From: a virus | DNA length: 64,000 bases | Direction: 5' to 3' (one strand) | Virus genome (UHGV): UHGV-1440165 | Shown: positions 22,588-47,550 of the stretch, piece by piece | Numbering within the stretch: the first letter of the stretch is position 1 | Layout of the letters: every line of letters starts with the position of its first letter | Program-made: the position numbers and the translations under genes | The notes under the pieces: generated by a model | Told to the model about the DNA's origin: nothing | What the model saw: only the letters and a program-made list of their open reading frames with translations | The model's database searches: none

Positions 22588-22616
22588 ATAATAGGGCACC
22601 ATTATTGAAGAGTAAA
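22588..22616 (-). promoter_or_regulatory. sigma70-like early promoter TTTACT-N17-TATTAT with AT-rich upstream region
   Basis: Hexamers and spacing read directly; GC hairpin (GGCGGCAACACACCGCC) lies just downstream at predicted transcript 5' end. Confidence 0.55.
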
Positions 22617-35910: not shown

Positions 35911-36678
35911 ATGGCACCCCGCGCATATCGTTTCAGTCTCACCGCCCCGCAGATTGAGCAATTGCTCCTTTCTATCAATGATGCTATCAAGTCAGAAGAT
36001 ATCATCTATGATTATGCTACAGGTGGGACTGTTGGGCAAGTCGCAGCAGCGTCTGCCGTCAAGAACATGTGGCTCAAGCTCAATGAGATGGTGACAGGCC
36101 AAGGCCTCAAAGACGCCATCAACAGTGCTGGCGACAGCAACGTGTTCACCGACTATTATAAGTCTCTTCTGGATCGCGAAGGCTGGAAATTTATTGGCTC
36201 CCCAGCAGATATCCTGGCTCGAGACGATATCGACACCACGAACTTCACGGGCGGCGAAGTCATTCTACTTCAGAAGAACGCCTCAGGCAACCCTGAGTTC
36301 CAATACTGGAAGCGAACTCCCGTCGCGGGTGGTGACCCTACCTTCGCCTGGGCTTCGGTCTATGAAGGGAACTCCAACGACTCAACAATCGAAATCCCGG
36401 TGATCGGCACGAGCGTCCTCAAAGACATTCCCAAGGCTCTCTTCCATATGGTGGAGTTCCGAGTTCATGTCTATGACGAAACGCTGGGGCACTGGCAGGA
36501 TACAGACGGCAAGGTCGGTTATCGTGGTGAGGATCTGTTCTACAGCACGTACAATCATGTGCAGACCAAACCGCTCGCCACCATTGACTTCAGCCAAGAC
36601 ACAGACAGCATGAAGATCTCCGTGACTTCCCTGGAGCCGAATGTCAAATGCCATCTGTCGTTTATCGCTGGTTACTAA
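35911..36678 (+). CDS. hypothetical late protein (probable virion component)
   Basis: AAGAGGAA RBS; late promoter; plus-strand like other structural genes. Confidence 0.45.
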   Translation: MAPRAYRFSLTAPQIEQLLLSINDAIKSEDIIYDYATGGTVGQVAAASAVKNMWLKLNEMVTGQGLKDAINSAGDSNVFTDYYKSLLDREGWKFIGSPADILARDDIDTTNFTGGEVILLQKNASGNPEFQYWKRTPVAGGDPTFAWASVYEGNSNDSTIEIPVIGTSVLKDIPKALFHMVEFRVHVYDETLGHWQDTDGKVGYRGEDLFYSTYNHVQTKPLATIDFSQDTDSMKISVTSLEPNVKCHLSFIAGY

Positions 36679-38393
36679 ACCTCAAACACGGCATCGGTAA
36701 ACCAGGCGGGGAAGAACTCTGGGTTGCGCATCATCAATGATTCAAAAGACGAATCAAGGATGTATGTCGCAGCCCAGTCATTCACACCCCTGACCGAACG
36801 CCCGCACATCTGAACGATACGCAGCACCGCCATCCTGAAGTACGCCGAAGGGTCTACACTGTTGACATGAGCTACAAGCGGGTCACCCAGGTAGTCATAA
36901 GGCACTTTGATCAGGATTTGGAAGCGGCTGTAATCGCCTTTGAAGTCATACCCCTCTTCCATAGCCGGACTGGCAATCACACAAGGCTGCTTGGTCCGGA
37001 ACGCATGTTCCATGATATCCATCAGGGCTTTGCGAGTACGAGGCACATGAATGATGTTCCGGTACTTGCTGAACTTCTGTAGAGCCAGGGCACGGTCATA
37101 GCTAACGGTGTGGATGATACCGGACTGGCCGGGATGAAATGCGATGATCTCGTCCACGTACTCAGCCAGCTTCTTCATCTCGTAGTCGCCCATGTTCGCC
37201 GTCATCTTCATGACGGGCATGTAGTTGACCTTGCGATTCTCAATCGGGATAGGGTTGCCGATCTGAATCTTGTGGTACTCGCCATCACGGATGCCCAGTG
37301 ACCGGGCGTACGAGTCGATCCCGCAGATGGTCGCCGACATATGAACATGGTAATCGCCCTTGCGAAACAGGCCGAACTGGGACACATCAGACGCGATGAC
37401 AGGCTTGAACTGAATCATGCCCTTGTCCTTCTCCTGAACGATGAAGGTGCTGGCGTTGGTCTGTCCCATGATGCCGCAGTAGTCGCTGAGGTTGTGAAGG
37501 GTGTCTATGATGTCCGACAGCTTCATCACCTGGGCTTCCGTCAGGCGCTCGTCCTCGACCAGTTCCTCAAGAGTTTCCAGCAGGGCTTCAACCTTATCAT
37601 GCAGGTCGTCAAAGATTGCATGCATCTCACCTGTCAGCGAGTACAGCTTGCCCAACTCATAGTTCTCTGTGCGGATTACGATATCTTTGATGATCTCCAC
37701 GATAGGCACTCCCTCGGGGATCGTAAGCAACCCTTCCACAGCCTTTATGCTGTATTCCATGATCGTGTGCTCTAGGAGCGTAGAGGGCATCTTATGGCAC
37801 TCGTCAAGGATCAACATATCGGCACGGTTTTCTGGCTTCATACAGATCGTCGTACACATCTCCACCATCATGGCGGCGTTGGTGCAGCGCAGGGAGGAGA
37901 CGTCTGTCCACTGACGTCGCGCCTGAACATATGGGCAACGATTCTTGCTGCAGTGGCCATCCCGGCATGCCATACGGCACTGGATGGCGTTGTAGTACAG
38001 GTCAGGGCTGATATGGCAACGATAGTTCTTCTTGCCTTTCAGGATGTCTATCACCACTGCCCTTTCAGCCGCATACTGATCTTGCAGCCCTTTGGTCGGT
38101 GTCGTAATAGACGTGCGGAACTGACCATATGGGTTGCGCTCAAGAACCAGGTGGCGAAGCACATTATGAATAGTAGTACCGATCAGGGATTTACCCACAC
38201 CAGTTGGAGCCTCAATGATCACGTGTTTGACCTTCTTGTTCACGAGGGCATCAACGGCTTCAACGATGCATTCCATCTGGCCGGGGTTGGCGGTGTCGTA
38301 TGGGAAGAACTCAGTAGCAAGAGACTTGATGCGGTCTATGCTGACTGGTCCGACGCCATCGAGCGCCTTGGTGTATTGGTTGAATGCTGTCAC
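36675..38393 (-). CDS. DinG/Rad3(XPD)-family ATP-dependent helicase with Fe-S cluster domain
   Basis: Walker A EAPTGVGKS, DEAH-like LILDECH, four-Cys cluster CRMACRDGHCSKNRCPY. Confidence 0.65.
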   Translation of the reverse strand: MTAFNQYTKALDGVGPVSIDRIKSLATEFFPYDTANPGQMECIVEAVDALVNKKVKHVIIEAPTGVGKSLIGTTIHNVLRHLVLERNPYGQFRTSITTPTKGLQDQYAAERAVVIDILKGKKNYRCHISPDLYYNAIQCRMACRDGHCSKNRCPYVQARRQWTDVSSLRCTNAAMMVEMCTTICMKPENRADMLILDECHKMPSTLLEHTIMEYSIKAVEGLLTIPEGVPIVEIIKDIVIRTENYELGKLYSLTGEMHAIFDDLHDKVEALLETLEELVEDERLTEAQVMKLSDIIDTLHNLSDYCGIMGQTNASTFIVQEKDKGMIQFKPVIASDVSQFGLFRKGDYHVHMSATICGIDSYARSLGIRDGEYHKIQIGNPIPIENRKVNYMPVMKMTANMGDYEMKKLAEYVDEIIAFHPGQSGIIHTVSYDRALALQKFSKYRNIIHVPRTRKALMDIMEHAFRTKQPCVIASPAMEEGYDFKGDYSRFQILIKVPYDYLGDPLVAHVNSVDPSAYFRMAVLRIVQMCGRSVRGVNDWAATYILDSSFESLMMRNPEFFPAWFTDAVFEV

Positions 38394-38521: not shown

Positions 38522-38800
38522 TTACTTGCCGTTGGCAGCGTTCTTCAGACCTTCGCCCACTTTGAATTTCACAACGTTTTTCGCCGCGATCTGAATGGTC
38601 TGGCCGTTCAGAGGATTGCGACCTTCACGAGCTTCTTGTGCTTTAACTTCGAACGCGCCGAAGCCGACCAGCTGTACAGACGCGCCTGCAGCAACTGCAG
38701 TTTTAACGCCGTCGATAAAGGATGCCACTACTTTCTCCGCTTCGCCTTTGGTGATGTTCTGGGTCGAAGCAATGTGGGCAACAAATTCAGTACGATTCAT
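38522..38800 (-). CDS. HU/IHF-like DNA-binding protein
   Basis: MNRTEFV...GFGAFEVKAQEAREGRNP...; GGAGAAA RBS. Confidence 0.75.
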   Translation of the reverse strand: MNRTEFVAHIASTQNITKGEAEKVVASFIDGVKTAVAAGASVQLVGFGAFEVKAQEAREGRNPLNGQTIQIAAKNVVKFKVGEGLKNAANGK

Positions 38801-38894
38801 CTGGATTTCTCCGTTTGGGTTAATGTTTACTTTCATGTTCACTACAAGAGGACTACAGCTTACCTAACAAAACATATTGAATAAAGCGAAATTA

Positions 38895-40091: not shown

Positions 40092-40146
40092 GATATAGTC
40101 TCTCAAATGAAAGGCGGCCTTATGATAAGCCGCCCGAGATTATTGA

Positions 40147-41064
40147 TTATTGGAAATCGCCAACATACATGTTCAGCTTGTCATCCCACTCCACGACGAC
40201 GCGGATCGTTCCGGAATCTTCAGGGAAGGTCAGCTTAGAGCACATGGCGCGGTTGACATAAGTCCCGCTCTGGTTGACGTTGTAGTCCTTCCCAGCACAG
40301 ACACCGAAACGTTTGAAGTCACGGGTCACCATCATGTTCAGAGTTGTCCAAGGGAGTGCATCGCGCAGGGCTTTACACAGGATGATCTTTCCATCCGGTC
40401 TGAAGGAGACAAACATCTCATTGGCAACCCGGCGGCGAGCAGGCGGTTCAAGTTCGCGCAGGGAGATGAATTCAGAGGGATCATCCAAGGCACCCAAGGC
40501 ACCCAGGGCGACCATGTCTTCGCGAACTTTACTGACAACTTCAGTTACTGCGGACACGACTTCAACAGCCGGATTCGCCTTAAATGGTTCAACAGTCTTG
40601 GACATCTTGGATACAGACATCCCATCACCCTTGCGCTTCTCCGCATATTGCTCGACGGACTTGTCGCTCACCGGAGGCAGTTTGGTGGCAGGGGTTATAA
40701 CCGGGCTTGCATCTGGTTTCGACTTCGGGGTGCTACGAGCCAGGCGAAGATTTTCTTGGGCTTGCAGAATACGCTCTTGTCGTGTCTGTGGAGCCTTTGG
40801 TGAGATCTTCGTACTGAAGTCAGAAACACCGACCCAGTCACCCTGGTCATTGCGCTTGGCAACCAATGTCAGTTTGTGGATGATGCCCTGCAGCTTGCTT
40901 TCACGCAAATTGTCGGCATACCAGAACCTGGCGCCCATCTCGAACTTCTCGGCGAAGATGACACGAGCGTCTTCATGTACGAGCATCACTCGAGCCGCGT
41001 TGGGAGCGAACGTTTTGTTCTTTTCAATGATCGCCGCAGCGATAGTTTTCGTCAGGAGCATCAC
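40147..41064 (-). CDS. hypothetical protein (305 aa)
   Basis: ORF. Confidence 0.5.
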   Translation of the reverse strand: MMLLTKTIAAAIIEKNKTFAPNAARVMLVHEDARVIFAEKFEMGARFWYADNLRESKLQGIIHKLTLVAKRNDQGDWVGVSDFSTKISPKAPQTRQERILQAQENLRLARSTPKSKPDASPVITPATKLPPVSDKSVEQYAEKRKGDGMSVSKMSKTVEPFKANPAVEVVSAVTEVVSKVREDMVALGALGALDDPSEFISLRELEPPARRRVANEMFVSFRPDGKIILCKALRDALPWTTLNMMVTRDFKRFGVCAGKDYNVNQSGTYVNRAMCSKLTFPEDSGTIRVVVEWDDKLNMYVGDFQ

Positions 41065-41111
41065 GATGTATTCCTATCGGTTCAATTGGAGGTTAAATTT
41101 TACCCTGAAAT

Positions 41112-41444
41112 CTATTTTGAAACGCCGACAAAGTCCTGGGCAATTCCCCGACAATACATCAGGTCGGTCTTCGTTTGTGGGCTGTTTTCTGCCGCCGACA
41201 TCATCATTGGCAGGTCCAGCGCATTCTCTATCTGGTCAACGCTGAACAGGTCAAGGCGCTTCAGCTCTCCCTCGAAGTCGGACAGGAGAATAGACGTGTC
41301 TTTGTCGTCCGGATGGAATTGCTGATACGTCTCCATCCAGGCAGCGCATGTATTCAGTTTGGACGGCGGGGCGGCATGTACCCCGCCGATATAGGCAACC
41401 ACGACAGCCAGGATTAACAAGAGGATGATTTTACGAGTCATCAT
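41112..41444 (-). CDS. small secreted/membrane-anchored protein
   Basis: N-terminal hydrophobic signal IILLLILAVVVAYIGGVHA. Confidence 0.5.
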   Translation of the reverse strand: MMTRKIILLLILAVVVAYIGGVHAAPPSKLNTCAAWMETYQQFHPDDKDTSILLSDFEGELKRLDLFSVDQIENALDLPMMMSAAENSPQTKTDLMYCRGIAQDFVGVSK

Positions 41445-42127
41445 TCGTTCTCCTTCATCATGTTATCACAGTCGACACGAGTCTGTTGCAGCTCACGCGA
41501 CATACGAGGATCGTCGAGGTTCACACTCAGATTCGTGGCCAGATCTTTCAGGCCGTTCTGAACACGATCCTCATAATAGTGGTCGTTCTCAACCAGCCAG
41601 GCTCTGAGGCCAAGAGCGCGGGTACGCCATTGTTTCTTCAGAACACGGTCGGTTGTTTGTTCGGCACTGTACTCAAAGACCTTGATGCACTGGTTGCCAT
41701 CGTCGATAAGGTTCAGGTGACGGCGGCCAATCTGCACACCCTTCTGTAATGCCGGAGAAGGGAGCGAACGGCACTGTCTGACGGTCATGCGTCCTTGGGT
41801 GCCCATACGCCCAGTCATGATCAGATCGCTGGCCTCCATGCCTCCACGGTTAAATTCGTCGTCATTGAGGTAGCCCTTGAGGTTATAGGCTCCCTGTTTG
41901 TATCGGTTGAACTCAATCCCGGCATTGACAACAGCGGTGGAGACGTTGCCTGTGTTCCAGAGTTCAGCAAAGTTCTCTATGGATCCAGACTTATCGATTG
42001 CGACTGCCTGGGAGAACCCAGCGCAGTAGGAAAGATCAGACCACAGTTTGTCACCTGTGGTGTTCAGCTTGGCAGCGGCAGGGAGTGCCAGACCTGCAAG
42101 CACAACCCCAAGGATTAAACGTTTCAT
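41441..42127 (-). CDS. secreted (periplasmic) protein
   Basis: Signal peptide MKRLILGVVLAGLALPAAA; AAGGAGAA RBS. Confidence 0.55.
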   Translation of the reverse strand: MKRLILGVVLAGLALPAAAKLNTTGDKLWSDLSYCAGFSQAVAIDKSGSIENFAELWNTGNVSTAVVNAGIEFNRYKQGAYNLKGYLNDDEFNRGGMEASDLIMTGRMGTQGRMTVRQCRSLPSPALQKGVQIGRRHLNLIDDGNQCIKVFEYSAEQTTDRVLKKQWRTRALGLRAWLVENDHYYEDRVQNGLKDLATNLSVNLDDPRMSRELQQTRVDCDNMMKENE

Positions 42128-42211
42128 GGTGATTCTCCTTATTTCATTGGATGAAATGATAGGCGGCTCACCATGCTGAGTAAAGGGTTTCAATAAACTA
42201 TCGTATTCAGA

Positions 42212-42670
42212 TTAGTACCGACTATCACTGACCGTCCGGTACTTCACACCCTTGAACTGCTTGGCAACCTTGACGAACTCCATCGCAGGCATGTCCACTT
42301 TGTAGACCTTGATGCGCTGACGGTCATCCATGTTCAGAGCAGCCACATAGCGGTGGGAGCCGTCGACCACATAGTTATCAGAAGACACCCAAACCCGACC
42401 CATGGGCTTCTTGTTTCTGATGTTCTTCATGATCTTCCAGACCTTCATCTTGTTGATTTCGTTCTGGGTGAGACGGAGCGATTTGATAGGAACCTGGCCA
42501 GCATCGATAGTGATGCCGAGTTCCTCCAGGTAGTCATGGAAGGCATCCTGTTTGTCATCGTCGATTTGTGGCATAGAAGAACGCGAAAGCCCGAGGTTTC
42601 CAACAGGAATCCTCAGGCCGTTGATAATGTTCAACCAGTCTATGAAGGAAGACATGAACATGAGATTCAC
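42212..42670 (-). CDS. ParB/Srx-like nuclease domain protein
   Basis: VVDGSHRYVAA resembles ParB/sulfiredoxin-fold DGxHR motif. Confidence 0.4.
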   Translation of the reverse strand: MNLMFMSSFIDWLNIINGLRIPVGNLGLSRSSMPQIDDDKQDAFHDYLEELGITIDAGQVPIKSLRLTQNEINKMKVWKIMKNIRNKKPMGRVWVSSDNYVVDGSHRYVAALNMDDRQRIKVYKVDMPAMEFVKVAKQFKGVKYRTVSDSRY

Positions 42671-42685
42671 CTCGGGATATGAATT

Positions 42686-42802
42686 ATCCCTTAGTTAGTC
42701 GTGAAATGTCTTGGCGAGAAACCTCCCGACATATTCACAAAAGGCAATGATCACTAAACCCAATCCGCAACCAATAAGCCAACCCCAAAATTCAATGTCC
42801 AC
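42686..42802 (-). CDS. small hydrophobic protein (~38 aa), not in ORF track; coordinates approximate
   Basis: Hand translation MVDIEFWGWLIGCGLGLVIIAFCEYVGRFLAKTFHD; ATG overlaps upstream stop (TGATG). Confidence 0.3.
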
Positions 42803-42804
42803 CA

Positions 42805-43092
42805 TCACACCTCGTCTTCTTCAGGTCCACCGTCAATCAGGATACGAGCGGTGTCGAAAGTTTCCCCGCCCGTGTTCAGCAGCTTGGTCAGATCGTCAAG
42901 ATATCGGACCGTGCCAAGATCAGATGACCGCGTTATAAATTCCAGCATACCATACAGGGCTGATTTGAATCGGCTGTTGTCGATATCGTTCTTGATTTCC
43001 ATCAGGCGCAAGATGTTCTCTGACTGAGTATGGCCAACACACGCCTTGTCTCTGATCATCTCCTTGATAGAACTTCTCTCTGTTGGTGTCAT
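42805..43092 (-). CDS. hypothetical protein (95 aa)
   Basis: ORF. Confidence 0.4.
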   Translation of the reverse strand: MTPTERSSIKEMIRDKACVGHTQSENILRLMEIKNDIDNSRFKSALYGMLEFITRSSDLGTVRYLDDLTKLLNTGGETFDTARILIDGGPEEDEV

Positions 43093-43466
43093 AACGAACC
43101 ACCCCCGACAGAGATCAAGAACTCTTCTTCAATGGTCGTGACCGGGCGGCGGTTGCGGGTTTCGATCATGAAGCCCCAGCCGCCGTCGGCGACGTTGCCA
43201 AAGGTCTTGACGCCAAAGGTCTTCTTCCCGTTGGAGCAGGCATAGAAGTCCAGGATGAACGGGCTACCCTGATTGTCGATCCCACGGTTTACGCCGTCCG
43301 CTACACAGCGCTCAATCATCTTCCCGTTCTTATACAGAACGAGGTCTTGGCCATACGCCTTGAAAGCATAAACGCCGTTGGTAGACACTCCGGTGATGAC
43401 AGGAGGAGCGGAAACAGCAGAGAAGGAAGCGCCCAGCAGGGCAACGGCGAGGATTAACTTTTTCAT
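43089..43466 (-). CDS. secreted protein
   Basis: Signal peptide MKKLILAVALLGASFSAVSA. Confidence 0.55.
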   Translation of the reverse strand: MKKLILAVALLGASFSAVSAPPVITGVSTNGVYAFKAYGQDLVLYKNGKMIERCVADGVNRGIDNQGSPFILDFYACSNGKKTFGVKTFGNVADGGWGFMIETRNRRPVTTIEEEFLISVGGGSL

Positions 43467-43518
43467 GATATAGTCTCTTGGTTTCAAATGGGCGGGGTAT
43501 GATTACCCCGCCGTGGGT

Positions 43519-44025
43519 TTATAGGGTAACAAGTGATACGGTAAAAACCATCGTCCCGTCAGTTGCCATTTTTCTTGAAACTGGTATGACGCGAGGCTGG
43601 CAGAATATCCATTCTTTCTCCATGGACGCCAAGTCCAGCATATCCATTTCTGATTCATCGCCTTTGTTCACAAATTTTTCTAGAGAACCATAGACATTAA
43701 GCCCCTCCGGGAGTCCGTTTCGATGTTTGTAACATATGCGGGCGACAGCTCTGGTTCCATACGATTTAGAAAATTGTTTGGCCACATGCTTCAGTTCACT
43801 GAAGCTAAGACAAGAATCCCATGTCTGAAACATGTCTCCTCGTTCAAACATCATCTCCAAACGCGCAACGTCCTCTTTAGGCAACCCGCGATAAAGTGTG
43901 GTCATCTGCGGTTCGCGTAATTCTCGCACCAGACCACGGATGGCAGGGGAAACAGTGCCAGGGCGCATGATGTGGGACTTATCATGGACGAGGTAAAATA
44001 AATCTTGAATTTGTTGATCGGTCAT
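43519..44025 (-). CDS. mono-ADP-ribosyltransferase, T4 ModA/ModB-like
   Basis: R motif TLYRGLPKE (T4 ModA PLWRGVPAE), S-x-S region DSCLSFSE, ExE-like SMEKEWIF, in ModA order and spacing. Confidence 0.55.
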   Translation of the reverse strand: MTDQQIQDLFYLVHDKSHIMRPGTVSPAIRGLVRELREPQMTTLYRGLPKEDVARLEMMFERGDMFQTWDSCLSFSELKHVAKQFSKSYGTRAVARICYKHRNGLPEGLNVYGSLEKFVNKGDESEMDMLDLASMEKEWIFCQPRVIPVSRKMATDGTMVFTVSLVTL

Positions 44026-44084
44026 GATGTATTTCCTTCATTTCAAATAGGCGGGGTAATCATACCCCACCCTAAGTTATAGAA

Positions 44085-44324
44085 TTAACTGATGTGCTTC
44101 AGAAGAGCGAAGAGGATCGCGGCCTTGGCTTTCACCTTTCCGACGACGCCTGTTTCGACATCGACTTCTTCGGCAACCCAATCTTTTCCCTTCTTGCTGA
44201 TGATAACATCGCGGCGCTGGGCATATACTTCTTTGGTCGCATACACACGGCGGAACCCTTTAGCGCGGAGCAAGCCCCAATTGCGATCAATCTCTACTGA
44301 AGTTTCGACCATTTTGTTCTTCAT
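44085..44324 (-). CDS. hypothetical protein (79 aa), basic
   Basis: ORF with own promoter. Confidence 0.45.
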   Translation of the reverse strand: MKNKMVETSVEIDRNWGLLRAKGFRRVYATKEVYAQRRDVIISKKGKDWVAEEVDVETGVVGKVKAKAAILFALLKHIS

Positions 44325-44375
44325 GATATAATCTTACCTTTCAACCTGGTGAACCCATCGTTCGCCAGTTATTGA

Positions 44376-44404
44376 ATAATAGGACATTCTTTAGAGGAAG
44401 TAAA
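44376..44404 (-). promoter_or_regulatory. sigma70-like early promoter TTTACT-N17-TATTAT
   Basis: Hexamers read directly; follows terminator hairpin. Confidence 0.6.
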
Positions 44405-44421
44405 CCCCTAAAAGTAAAAAT

Positions 44422-44439
44422 CCCCAACAAACGTTGGGG
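44422..44439 (-). terminator. rho-independent terminator (CCCCAACAAACGTTGGGG) followed by U-run on minus strand
   Basis: Perfect 7-bp stem. Confidence 0.6.
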
Positions 44440-44457
44440 ATTTAATAAAAGTTATGC

Positions 44458-44682
44458 CTATTTAATTTCTCGGCTTGAATTTTCCAGTTCTAATTTTCTT
44501 ATAGCGGAAATTCTACCTTCATCAGTTGCGGGAAACTCCCAAACAGCACGACGTCCGTTGTGAGTATCACAACTTGCCAGCCAGAAGAAATTAGAGGGAT
44601 CTTTAAACAAGACCAATTTAGGGTTAGCAATATTGTTCAGGCAAAATGGGGCGAGGTCAACAACGCGTGATACAGCAGACAT
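44458..44682 (-). CDS. hypothetical protein (74 aa)
   Basis: ORF flanked by duplicated terminator-promoter cassettes. Confidence 0.45.
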   Translation of the reverse strand: MSAVSRVVDLAPFCLNNIANPKLVLFKDPSNFFWLASCDTHNGRRAVWEFPATDEGRISAIRKLELENSSREIK

Positions 44683-44731
44683 AATATATACCTTCTTTCA
44701 ACGGACGGGAACGCCCCGCCCTATGAATTCA

Positions 44732-44760
44732 ATAATACGTATTTGCCTTATAGAAGTAAA
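44732..44760 (-). promoter_or_regulatory. sigma70-like early promoter TTTACT-N17-TATTAT
   Basis: Same architecture as 44376..44404. Confidence 0.6.
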
Positions 44761-44777
44761 CCCCTAAAAGTAAAAAT

Positions 44778-44795
44778 CCCCAACGTTTGTTGGGG
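44778..44795 (-). terminator. rho-independent terminator (CCCCAACGTTTGTTGGGG)
   Basis: Same stem as 44422 with reverse-complemented loop. Confidence 0.6.
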
Positions 44796-44802
44796 ACTTC
44801 TG

Positions 44803-45126
44803 TTATTTGCGCAGGGCAACCACGAATTCAGCGAGTTCACCCATGGTCGGGTCATCGCCTTTACTGCCCAGCCAGCCGTCGTCTATTTCGACCTGAAACT
44901 CTTCTTCTAGTTCCATTACGATTTCGATAGCATCCAGTTCATCGCCGCCGAGGTCTTTCTTGGTGCGGAGGCCAGCCAGTTTGTCCAGGGCGTCTTCGTT
45001 TTGAGATGCCACGTCGTCCAGCAGTTTGCGCTTGTCATCGTCGCGCCACAGATCCATATTCAGATTCTCTGTAGCGTACTGAGCCAGGTGTCGCATCACC
45101 TCAACATATGTCGGTTTACTGCTCAT
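44803..45126 (-). CDS. acyl carrier protein homologue lacking the phosphopantetheine-attachment serine
   Basis: DLGGDELDAIEIVMELEEEFQVEIDD versus E. coli ACP [26 protein letters not shown]; the DSL serine is Glu here. Confidence 0.65.
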   Translation of the reverse strand: MSSKPTYVEVMRHLAQYATENLNMDLWRDDDKRKLLDDVASQNEDALDKLAGLRTKKDLGGDELDAIEIVMELEEEFQVEIDDGWLGSKGDDPTMGELAEFVVALRK

Positions 45127-45168: not shown

Positions 45169-47397
45169 TTAGATTTTGATCTCTTTCTCTGCCAGTTCGG
45201 CAGTGACCTTGTACTTCACGCCATCCACTTCAACTTCCATGGTTGACTCTTCCAGGTCGAGGTCGGTGAACCAGCCATGGCCAGCAACGATACCATACAC
45301 CACTTTAGACAGCGTCTTGTTCAGGGCGCGGACTTCAGTGATGGCCGCCTTGGCAGCAGCGTCGATCCAGTTTTCGATCAGCTGTTTCTGTACGGCTTCA
45401 GGCACAGCAGTAATAGCCGGGGACTTCACGAATGCGTCGTATTCTTTCAGTGCATTGGCGATGAACATATCACCCGCATTGAGAGCCTTTTTATCAGCAA
45501 TCTTCTTCTGTACCGCAGCGATGGACGGCAGAGAAGACGCCCCGGCGATCTTAACGTTCAGCTCACGGCTCATGTAGACGTCCGTGGAGTCCTTCAGCTC
45601 GGTCTTCGGTGAGAAGCCATAATCGCGGATACCAACACTAGACAGGTATTCTGCGGCCGCAGCGCCGTACTGAATAGCCAGACCTTTGGCATTACCCTTA
45701 CCAACCAGGGCGTCGCGATAGAACTTCAGTACCTTCTGCTTGCCTTTCAGGGCTTCCAGGCGAACGTTGTCGGCAAAGAACTGTGCAGCACTGATGTTCT
45801 TGACCATCGCACGGTTGACCAGCGGTACGCTTTCCAGGTTCAGAATGAACACTTCCGGACCAACGAACACGTGGACGCCCATTTCGATCAACTTCTGCAC
45901 AACTTCGATATCAGCCTTGAACGGCAGGGTCTTCACATTGATGATGCCGTCTTTGACGATGGTGTAGTTGCGCCACTGGAATGTGTCCAATTCTTCGGGT
46001 AGACCGAACTTCTTCTGAGCGAATTCGGGCACCGCCACAGTTCCATGCTGGATTGTACGCACACTGATGTTCGGGCGCTCAGAGTTATAGACCAGGTCGC
46101 TGATTGAGATCACGCCCAGATCGTTAGCAGGTTCAAACGACGGTGTCCACTCTTCGTGCTCAGCCAGCTTGAGAGCGAGGGCTTTACGCTCTTCTTTGGA
46201 CTTGGCGTTCGCGATTTCTTCCGCCAGCTTGTCTTCGGTATCATCGGCTTTCTGCACAGTACCGCGACCAATGCTCTTGTAGGAGAACATCGGGTGCTTG
46301 GTGGCAACAGACACGCCAGCTTCGGCCAGGTACGTCAGCACATCAACGACAGTGGTCGCATCTTCAGCCGGAACCATATTGTAGTCGATACCGTCCACGC
46401 CGCGCAGCTGATCATCAACGATGGCCTGGGTCAGATCAACTTTGATGTTGGAGTAGTCCTGCTTGGTGAAGCAGTTGCTGTACTGTTTGATGAAGCGGAC
46501 GTCGCCCGTTTTCTTCAGCGCAGCCCACACCAGGTCGGCGTCCATGATGTGTACGCCGTAGAACGCCAGCACGTATGCTGCCTGGATGTCCGTCAGCGCA
46601 TCAAGCTGGTCGATCATGTTAGGGTTGACGACCCACAGCTTCGTGACGCTCTCAGGGATGCTCACGTGGCCGATAGGATGGTCTTCATCCGGCTGTACCG
46701 CCAGCACGGTTGCTACGCCGTTTTCAACGTAGATGGCGTGAGTGTACACCACAGGAACGTCAACACGAACCTTCGGCACCGAGGACTTCAACACGTTTTC
46801 CAGCTCAGTCTGATATTCAGTCTGTCCTTCGGCGAACACGTGAGTCGCGCCGGAACGCTCGGACATCTGGGCCAGGAGTTCGCGGTTACAGTACCAGCCG
46901 TATTCGATAAAGGTGATGTTATCGAAAACAAATGGCAAGGTTTCGGCGACGGCCAGGATTTCATTGGAGCGCCAGCAGTTGTCATAACCATCGGTCATGA
47001 ACGCCAGGTTGTTGACGTAGCCGGGTTTCTTCAGGCTACGCGCAGTATCTACCGCGAGACCCAGGGGTTCGACGAAGCCAGTGCAACCGGATGGTTGCAG
47101 GAAGCGGTCGATCAGTTTGTTCAGCTCGCTCAGGTCAGACGCAGCACTGACCTGGCGGCCAGCGAACACAGTACCAAAGTCGCCACGGGATGAGAAGTAC
47201 AGGAGGCTCACTGTGTCTTCCGGTTTCACCAGGGAAGGCAGGTTCTCCTTCAGGTGCTTACGGACTTCAGGGAGCGCCCGGTACATGGAACCGGAAATGT
47301 CCACAACGATTACATGGTTGGACGGGGCAGCAGTCGCAACCGCATTCTTAAACTCCAGGGATTCAATCATCGTTATTGCCTTCTTCAGGGTTGTCAT
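45169..47397 (-). CDS. large von Willebrand factor A (vWA) domain protein
   Basis: N-terminal MIDAS motif VVDISGSM; ~740 aa; start at MTTLKK with GGAAGGTGAGG RBS. Confidence 0.55.
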   Translation of the reverse strand: MTTLKKAITMIESLEFKNAVATAAPSNHVIVVDISGSMYRALPEVRKHLKENLPSLVKPEDTVSLLYFSSRGDFGTVFAGRQVSAASDLSELNKLIDRFLQPSGCTGFVEPLGLAVDTARSLKKPGYVNNLAFMTDGYDNCWRSNEILAVAETLPFVFDNITFIEYGWYCNRELLAQMSERSGATHVFAEGQTEYQTELENVLKSSVPKVRVDVPVVYTHAIYVENGVATVLAVQPDEDHPIGHVSIPESVTKLWVVNPNMIDQLDALTDIQAAYVLAFYGVHIMDADLVWAALKKTGDVRFIKQYSNCFTKQDYSNIKVDLTQAIVDDQLRGVDGIDYNMVPAEDATTVVDVLTYLAEAGVSVATKHPMFSYKSIGRGTVQKADDTEDKLAEEIANAKSKEERKALALKLAEHEEWTPSFEPANDLGVISISDLVYNSERPNISVRTIQHGTVAVPEFAQKKFGLPEELDTFQWRNYTIVKDGIINVKTLPFKADIEVVQKLIEMGVHVFVGPEVFILNLESVPLVNRAMVKNISAAQFFADNVRLEALKGKQKVLKFYRDALVGKGNAKGLAIQYGAAAAEYLSSVGIRDYGFSPKTELKDSTDVYMSRELNVKIAGASSLPSIAAVQKKIADKKALNAGDMFIANALKEYDAFVKSPAITAVPEAVQKQLIENWIDAAAKAAITEVRALNKTLSKVVYGIVAGHGWFTDLDLEESTMEVEVDGVKYKVTAELAEKEIKI

Positions 47398-47550
47398 CGG
47401 CCTCACCTTCCGGATTGACCAGCATGTGTTCAACGAATTCGCGATTCAGCTCAATCTGGCTCATCAGCGCATCCGTCGGAGTAAAGCGGCGGTCGAGGTT
47501 ATCGACACCCGCACGTTTAAATGGTTTGGACATTCCTCGACCTCAAAACA

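Follow-up and report, generated by a model that had tools for sequence, protein, structure and literature searches.

ParB-fold proteins are now seen as versatile modules, dependent on nucleoside triphosphates (NTPs), that act far beyond chromosome segregation, and two described systems bear most closely on the gene discussed here. In phages, ParB domains of the DdrB type of P1 sit in head-packaged polyvalent proteins; such proteins were argued to be packaged and delivered with the phage DNA, and their ParB domains were proposed to act as NTP sensors or degraders early in infection (Iyer et al., 2017; PMC5512222). ToxB, a ParB-fold toxin domain of CdiA, binds and slowly hydrolyses adenosine triphosphate (ATP) and not cytidine triphosphate (CTP), and loses both binding and hydrolysis in the R108A mutant of its G105-N-H-R108 motif (bioRxiv 10.64898/2026.05.05.722872). 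Here we describe a gene for a small protein of this kind, called below the ParB-like protein, in a stretch of 64,000 nucleotides of the UHGV virus genome UHGV-1440165 (the window, whose positions are used throughout). From its sequence, predicted structure and orthologs, we give about an even chance to the proposal that it is a single-domain ParB/sulfiredoxin (Srx) enzyme, packaged in the virion and ejected, that would bind an NTP, probably ATP, at the onset of infection.

The window phage belongs to the Ackermannviridae and is Aglimvirinae/Agtrevirus-like; in region 41000-45000 it shares 93.7% identity with Salmonella phage pSal-SNUABM-02 and 88-92% with Shigella phage MK-13 and other phages. 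The ParB-like gene is real and conserved, and the window holds one copy of it, no second copy having been found within the 64 kb. The first-pass annotation had placed the gene at 42212-42670. A minus-strand open reading frame (ORF) with these limits is indeed present in the list of ORFs of the window; its GTG start did not hold. The GTG (42670-42668) is part of a Shine-Dalgarno sequence, GAGGTG (42673-42668), an ATG comes 6 nucleotides later at 42661, and the annotated orthologs are all 450-bp coding sequences (CDSs) of 149 amino acid residues (aa) with the N-terminus MF(M/L)SSF. Since the GTG lies inside the Shine-Dalgarno sequence and every ortholog begins at the equivalent ATG, we take the true CDS to be 42212-42661 on the minus strand:

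42212-42661, minus strand: CDS of the predicted ParB/Srx-fold protein, stop included, a single compact domain (ORF, ortholog lengths, AlphaFold2 and fold matches)
42668-42673, minus strand: Shine-Dalgarno sequence GAGGTG (read from the sequence)

The product has a computed mass of 17.30 kDa and a computed isoelectric point of 9.6. Searches of Pfam (E up to 10), NCBIfam (E up to 1) and PADLOC (E up to 1) returned zero matches for it, and a search of PDB sequences with the protein and two profiles gave insignificant matches, the best being the DGHHRW stretch of SerK (E about 0.6-1.4). Among the PHROGs, phrog_2859, of unknown function, was matched at E = 1.4e-45 over positions 314-467 of its 740, and several "ParB-like" PHROGs were matched weakly.

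Structure prediction points to a ParB/sulfiredoxin nucleotide-binding fold. AlphaFold2 gave a predicted local distance difference test score (pLDDT) of 83.3 and a predicted template modelling score (pTM) of 0.77 with 18 close homologs, and 94.3 and 0.87, respectively, with 70 divergent stand-alone homologs, the topology being unchanged; in this deeper model the N-terminal 50 residues are also confident and part of the same domain. Foldseek returned a probability of 1.00 against ParB-N, Srx, Noc and ParB. The predicted strands (residues 52-58, 90-92, 97-100 and 116-122) and helices (71-82, 102-111 and 126-134) match the core of the superfamily, that is, beta1, loop, alpha1, beta2, beta3, GxxR at the start of alpha2, beta4 and alpha3. 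A weak hhalign match of the family profile to human Srx (E = 0.0017, probability 15.7%) places residues 62-128 on Srx 50-124, K73 on K61 and D100-G-S-H-R104 on G97-G-C-H-R101, and this collinearity suggests that the ParB/Srx core comprises about residues 52-135. Family members in BFVD align across 120-148 columns. The first-pass annotation had seen a ParB fold in the VVDGSHRY motif and would have taken the lack of such a fold on structure prediction as a refutation; both the alignment of DGSHR with the Srx motif and the confident model uphold that idea.

Conserved residues mark four short elements, three of them in the core and one in the N-terminal extension:

42347-42370, minus strand: VVDGSHRY, residues 98-105, end of strand beta3 and GxxR phosphate-binding (P, or Box II) motif (alignments, hhalign)
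42458-42478, minus strand: LRLTQNE, residues 62-68, loop after core strand beta1, with invariant Q66 (alignments, secondary structure)
42443-42445, minus strand: Lys73, conserved in at least 90% of homologs and aligned with human Srx Lys61 (alignment, hhalign)
42566-42589, minus strand: LSRSSMPQ, residues 25-32, inside the N-terminal extension (alignments, AlphaFold2)

Conservation was scored over the 70 divergent stand-alone homologs, which are 23-62% identical to the window protein. R27, P31, Q32, Q66, D100, G101 and H103 are invariant among them, and M30, K73, S93, D95, R104 and A107 are conserved in at least 90%. The extension (residues 1-51) is specific to the family and consists of an amphipathic helix (2-14), the LSRSSMPQ element and a second helix (35-47). 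Lys61 of Srx, the counterpart of K73, is a ligand of the ATP phosphate in the Srx-ADP/ATP structures (1xw4 and 3cyi). The P-motif reads DGHHRW in the family consensus and DGSHR(Y/F) in the clade of the Ackermannviridae, in which Ser102 is invariant at the position of the consensus His. A G-x-H-R phosphate motif is common to Srx (GCHR), SerK (GHHR) and ToxB (GNHR), all members that bind ATP or ADP; CTP-binding ParBs carry GERR. ATP is therefore favoured as the ligand, the motif being of the type found in ATP/ADP-using members and not GERR.

Orthologs of the ParB-like protein are virion-associated in two related phages. The LIMEstone1 ortholog (GenBank ORF101; 149 aa, computed mass 17.30 kDa) bears the GenBank tag 'confirmed structural protein' and corresponds to the 17.31-kDa "unknown structural protein" in Table 2 of the LIMEstone1 paper, identified by 5 unique peptides with 35.6% coverage (that table numbers it ORF 102, one off GenBank). 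In Sajous1, the product gp192, which is 84% identical and encoded at the same genomic position, gave 11 spectra in published mass spectrometry of virions purified on caesium chloride (CsCl), about as many as came from the baseplate hub and further minor structural proteins of that phage. The ortholog is also annotated as structural in the records of JA15, rabagast, kage and moki. A third virion proteome, that of phiD3, comprises only 10 identified proteins and is therefore uninformative on this point.

Copies with at least 60% identity occur in 281 phage records, essentially all from Ackermannviridae, and remoter ones in phages of Vibrio, Aeromonas, Stenotrophomonas, Ralstonia, Pseudomonas and Chryseobacterium. 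An exhaustive HMMER search gave 4,545 clusters (50% identity) at E up to 1e-3 and 1,609 at E up to 1e-10; the protein thus belongs to a large ParB/Srx group that has no Pfam or other curated model. UniRef labels the orthologs "ParB/Sulfiredoxin domain-containing protein". One ortholog (PQ306799.1, 75315-75764; 7200-7649 of our locus L001) is labelled 'cytidyltransferase', a label that we reject, as the gene spans the ParB-like module only; it probably reflects annotation transfer from proteins in which a CTP_transf_like domain is fused to the module.

Indeed, the module of about 140 aa occurs both alone and fused within large phage proteins. Among the best 150 clusters, 68 have solo proteins of at most 200 aa, 42 of 201-400 aa, 30 of 401-1000 aa and 10 of more than 1000 aa, so that 82 of the 150 are multidomain (>200 aa), and two copies of the module are present in 14 of the 254 family proteins collected, a tandem duplication which hints that the domain may dimerise. 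The partners detected with Pfam are Zeta_toxin/AAA_33, CTP_transf_like, RelA_SpoT, PT-HINT and intein, PolyA_pol head, ADPrib_exo_Tox, ART-PolyVal, Acb1 and GNAT. Three arrangements recur:

CTP_transf_like, then the ParB-like module; about 336 aa, 21 clusters
Acb1, then the ParB-like module; about 300 aa, 7 clusters
ParB-like module, then an unannotated domain of about 130 aa, which recurs in 18 proteins

This last domain (residues 146-275 of P0212 and 17 others) is found in proteins of 275-964 aa and has no sequence match in Pfam or the PDB; a PDB sequence search with the CTP_transf_like partner was likewise without matches. Larger assemblies include P0145 (1,733 aa), which combines a Mu-type Portal_Mu domain, GNAT, two ParB-like domains and Zeta_toxin, a relative in BFVD with the module fused to an XkdF-like head protein, and a 4,948-aa ORF containing the module in the 63-kb Pseudomonas phage vB_PaeM_USP_18 (MT491207.1, 28440-43283). 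A lineage of large uncultured phages has a syntenic slot between the genes for DUF6267 and DUF7207 (L007, 8001-9008; L013, 3548-6828; L012, 6001-9179; and the context of P0232), in which the module is found with differing partners:

a CTP_transf_like/ParB-like fusion
a CTP_transf_like/DUF5824 protein, then a ParB-like gene
an Acb1/ParB-like fusion
a solo ParB-like gene, then an 897-aa Zeta-toxin protein

In these arrangements the ParB-like module stays constant and its nucleotide-handling partner varies. Such a domain repertoire and behaviour are those that Iyer et al. (PMC5512222) described for phage-type polyvalent proteins; what the window phage encodes on its own is a module built by other phages into polyvalent virion proteins.

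The mechanism that we propose from these observations is as follows. The ParB-like protein would be packaged in the virion and enter the host together with the ejected DNA. In the cell it would then bind an NTP, with ATP favoured, through K73, G101, H103 and R104, and the predicted nucleotide site would be completed by Q66, D95 and D100 together with the R27/MPQ extension. The NTP may then be hydrolysed, or its phosphate transferred, the protein acting as an effector of host takeover or counter-defence at the start of infection. The results above show the fold, the conserved pocket residues, the virion association of the orthologs and the range of fusions of the module; the ejection, the ATP preference, the catalysis and the target are inferred from them.

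Several points weigh against this proposal. The nucleotide specificity of ParB folds is not reliably readable from sequence, and of 28 ParB-fold proteins that were purified, 17 failed to bind any NTP in vitro (PMC12704722); Kaljevic et al. show that specificity is not reliably predictable from sequence or with AlphaFold3. The Sajous1 virion preparation contained RegB, SSB and other non-structural proteins as well, and gp192 may therefore have been carried over into it. The promoters predicted near the gene are only of the sigma-70-like 'early' type, and the T4-type late promoter TATAAATA has three sites in the window, none of them near the gene. Finally, across the relatives compared, the window protein has no conserved fused or adjacent effector partner.

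The conserved residues and the fusion partners also bear on what the protein might do instead. It could be a ParB-like DNase or nickase, possibly regulated by NTP, that cuts host or competitor DNA or aids phage replication, which is the nuclease reading of the first-pass annotation. Osa, a ParB-methylase of B. cereus and a plant Srx have been reported as non-specific nucleases (summarised in PMC5512222), the nearest Pfam family by weak matches is ParBc_2, a 'putative ParB-like nuclease', and the protein is basic. We nevertheless regard a nuclease as unlikely: a motif specific to nucleases was not identified, conservation falls on the residues of the nucleotide-phosphate pocket, and the fusion partners are overwhelmingly enzymes of nucleotides or small molecules and not DNA-handling domains; for the ParB domains of polyvalent proteins, Iyer et al. 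(PMC5512222) also judged NTP sensing or degradation likelier. The protein could also be a phosphotransferase acting on a small molecule or a protein, in the manner of SerK, SbnI or Srx, and begin a 'phosphorylate then nucleotidylate' route that a cytidylyltransferase-like enzyme would complete. Bifunctional HldE, RibF and NadR establish the combination of a kinase with CTP_transf_like as a known pattern and provide its precedent, the CTP_transf_like/ParB-like fusion is present in 21 clusters and the two are adjacent genes in L013, and the consensus DGHHRW is identical to the motif of SerK, which also gives the best, if weak, PDB and NCBIfam matches. Such a role is nonetheless improbable for a 149-aa protein that has no counterpart of the C-terminal substrate domain of about 130 aa needed by SerK and SbnI; moreover, the NCBIfam scores of its best relatives reach about 25 bits against a cut-off of 380, and no nucleotidyltransferase gene adjoins the gene in the window phage.

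Detection in virions and the many ParB folds that bind no NTP in vitro (PMC12704722) would also suit a protein without catalysis, be it a structural or internal component of the virion, a factor in its assembly or a protein-protein activator retaining no more than the fold; a phage ParB activates 5mYOX thymine dioxygenases, and this function is unaffected by mutations of the NTP site (PMC13229309). We find this quite improbable given that nine polar residues of pocket type vary little or not at all even among very divergent homologs, a pattern seldom seen where the role is purely structural. Neither is there a dioxygenase gene nearby, and the thymidine hypermodification of ViI was reconstituted with five other gene products, ParB being unmentioned (PMC5889632); a role in ViI-type hypermodification or as a 5mYOX activator is accordingly unsupported. 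If, on the other hand, the virion detections were contamination, the protein could be an early intracellular CTP-dependent switch of the ParB/KorB/Noc type, a possibility to which the sigma-70-like promoters upstream and the occurrence of the fold in CTPases would lend themselves. The ParB-like protein has no helix-turn-helix (HTH) or dimerisation domain, no match to PF02195 or TIGR00180 and GSHR instead of GERR, and its orthologs were detected in two independent virion proteomes, in one of them at the coverage given above, all of which makes such a switch very improbable.

The surroundings of the gene, in the direction of transcription, are as follows:

44418-44443, minus strand: terminator-like hairpin directly upstream of the promoter-like site at 44376-44404
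44376-44404, minus strand: promoter-like TTTACT-N17-TATTAT, the likely start of the ParB-like transcription unit
minus strand, first in the unit after this site: 79-aa ORF
43519-44025, minus strand: solo ADP-ribosyltransferase (ART), 168 aa, in the same unit upstream of the ParB-like gene (phrog_832)
minus strand, between the ART and the 36-aa ORF: a 132-aa signal-peptide protein, then a 95-aa ORF
42695-42805, minus strand: 36-aa single-pass transmembrane ORF directly upstream of the ParB-like gene ('membrane protein' in PQ306799)
42156-42184, minus strand: promoter-like TTTACT-N17-TATCAT, between the ParB-like stop and the next gene
41441-42127, minus strand: 228-aa signal-peptide protein, the next gene downstream
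minus strand, thereafter: an Rz-like spanin, a 305-aa ORF and a terminator at 40112-40135

The gap of 33 nucleotides between the transmembrane ORF and the ParB-like gene holds no terminator, and the two are therefore likely to be co-transcribed; the ATG of the transmembrane ORF itself overlaps the TGA of the 95-aa ORF upstream. The gene had been assigned in the first-pass annotation to an early operon of secreted proteins and an ADP-ribosyltransferase. Same-strand genes for an ART and for signal-peptide proteins do lie upstream and downstream, as it said; the promoter-like site at 42156-42184, however, splits off the downstream genes for the secreted and spanin-like proteins. As to the term "early operon", it is a prediction from sigma-70-like promoters and fits uneasily with virion packaging. 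An equivalent upstream site is annotated as a 'putative early promoter' in LIMEstone1, and we found no usable transcriptome data for Ackermannviridae in the literature. The sequence TTTACT-N17-TAT[TC]AT occurs four times on the minus strand of the window (22588-22616, 42156-42184, 44376-44404 and 44732-44760), where none is expected by chance, and two of these copies lie just downstream of near-identical G+C-rich hairpins (44418-44443 and 44777-44796), forming repeated terminator-plus-promoter cassettes between small genes.

The solo ART matches phrog_832 (Alt-like 'RNA polymerase ADP-ribosylase') at E = 1.1e-14, only over its C-terminal part (positions 1270-1425 of 1480), and both it and the ParB-like protein are solo versions of modules of polyvalent proteins. 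The ART as a neighbour is particular to the subgroup of the window phage: in most Ackermannviridae, Limestonevirus and Kuttervirus among them, the DenV glycosylase fills its slot; the linkage is therefore not conserved, and we give the juxtaposition of the two genes no functional weight. Elsewhere in the window, a 754-aa protein with a vWA domain (45169-47433, minus strand; its start is probably an internal ATG) has a LIMEstone1 ortholog that is a virion protein confirmed by mass spectrometry (6 peptides) and is called 'tail protein' in one record. A helicase with a Cys-rich, Fe-S-like insert (36675-38393, minus strand; 'DNA helicase' in relatives) adjoins the gene of an HU/IHF-like protein (38522-38842, minus strand; 'DNA binding protein' in relatives).

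A core virion-associated ParB/Srx protein in essentially every phage of the Ackermannviridae offers an easy experimental entry to a module that is found in hundreds of polyvalent proteins. These phages are widely used for the biocontrol of Salmonella, E. coli, Klebsiella and Dickeya. More broadly, a large uncurated branch of ParB/Srx proteins, of at least 4,545 clusters, may be packed by phages into their virions to serve as a first-strike enzyme on nucleotides and form a new class of injected counter-defence effector, an idea that we hold only tentatively and consider somewhat doubtful. The constant part would be the ParB-like module, as an ATPase or phosphotransferase with interchangeable heads (cytidylyltransferase-like, Acb1, Zeta-toxin kinase or RelA/SpoT), and such heads together with the module would destroy, modify or rebuild the host pools of nucleotides or immune signals. 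Should the window protein prove to be an injected ATPase or kinase, the ejected phage effectors known so far (T4 Alt and IPI*, P1 Dar and N4 vRNAP) would gain a new biochemical class; if it is inert or merely structural, the result is an ordinary refinement of annotation.

Compared with the curated members of the superfamily, the ParB-like protein stands apart from each. With the canonical CTPases ParB, Noc, KorB and PadC it has in common the N-terminal nucleotide-binding fold and a GxxR motif; unlike them, it lacks both an HTH and a C-terminal dimerisation domain, and its context is without ParA or parS (in relatives, the annotated neighbours of the gene include no ParA). Together with the missing PF02195 and TIGR00180 matches and DGSHRY in place of GERRxRA, this excludes a canonical partition ParB. 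Srx likewise consists of one ParB/Srx-fold domain, about 100 residues long, whose K61, H100 and R101 correspond to K73, H103 and R104. The ParB-like protein, by contrast, has about 50 additional conserved N-terminal residues and no peroxiredoxin context, and it is not a sulfiredoxin, because Ser102 replaces the catalytic Cys99 of the F-G-G-C-H-R motif. SerK shares the DGHHRW motif with the family consensus; SerK and SbnI have chains of about 240-254 aa with a C-terminal substrate-binding domain, whereas the window protein has no such domain and no match to NF053625, for which its best relatives score 24-25 bits, far under the cut-off. It is therefore not a kinase of this group.

The nearest curated family is ParBc_2 (PF08857; Atu1540, PDB 2hwj), itself without known function, which some relatives reach weakly by sequence. 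The window protein has no match to it, relatives score 20.8-22.6 bits against a gathering threshold of 23.6, the weak matches among relatives have E-values from 3.5e-5 to 8e-2, and the relatives P0187 and P0207 have precomputed PF08857 matches. Databases and papers already record both the fold and the detection in virions. Within the literature searched, three points appear to be new: that the protein falls outside the DdrB-ParB, ParBc, Srx and SerK families, how large its uncurated family is, and the pattern of a constant module with variable partners (Acb1, CTP_transf_like and Zeta toxin). The 2025 survey of ParB proteins would have missed this family, because the survey was seeded with PF02195 and the family has no Pfam model.

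The DdrB-like ParB domain (PMC5512222) also belongs to the ParB/Srx superfamily, occurs alone or inside large virion-packaged multidomain phage proteins, and is likewise a hub fused to ART, RelA/SpoT, 2H/Acb1-type, GNAT and similar domains. Residues 36-167 of P1 DdrB match PF18763 at 2.1e-39. PF18763 gave no match for the window protein and none at 1e-4 among 72 multidomain members of the family, and the comparison of the family hidden Markov model and hhalign with P1 DdrB was negative, which excludes a DdrB-like ParB; a further difference from DdrB lies in the N-terminal extension (R..MPQ) peculiar to the family and in its motifs TQ.E and DGHHRW. ToxB shares with the ParB-like protein a ParB fold that stands alone, with no DNA-binding domain, and it is an effector delivered into a target cell, as the ParB-like protein would be; its motif is GNHR in place of GSHR. 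It reaches its target through contact-dependent inhibition and is paired with a cognate immunity protein, whereas here the proposed vehicle is a phage virion, with no evident immunity gene. In function, the closest analogue would thus be ToxB, likened here by description and not by sequence, and in deployment the closest would be the DdrB-type ParB of P1.

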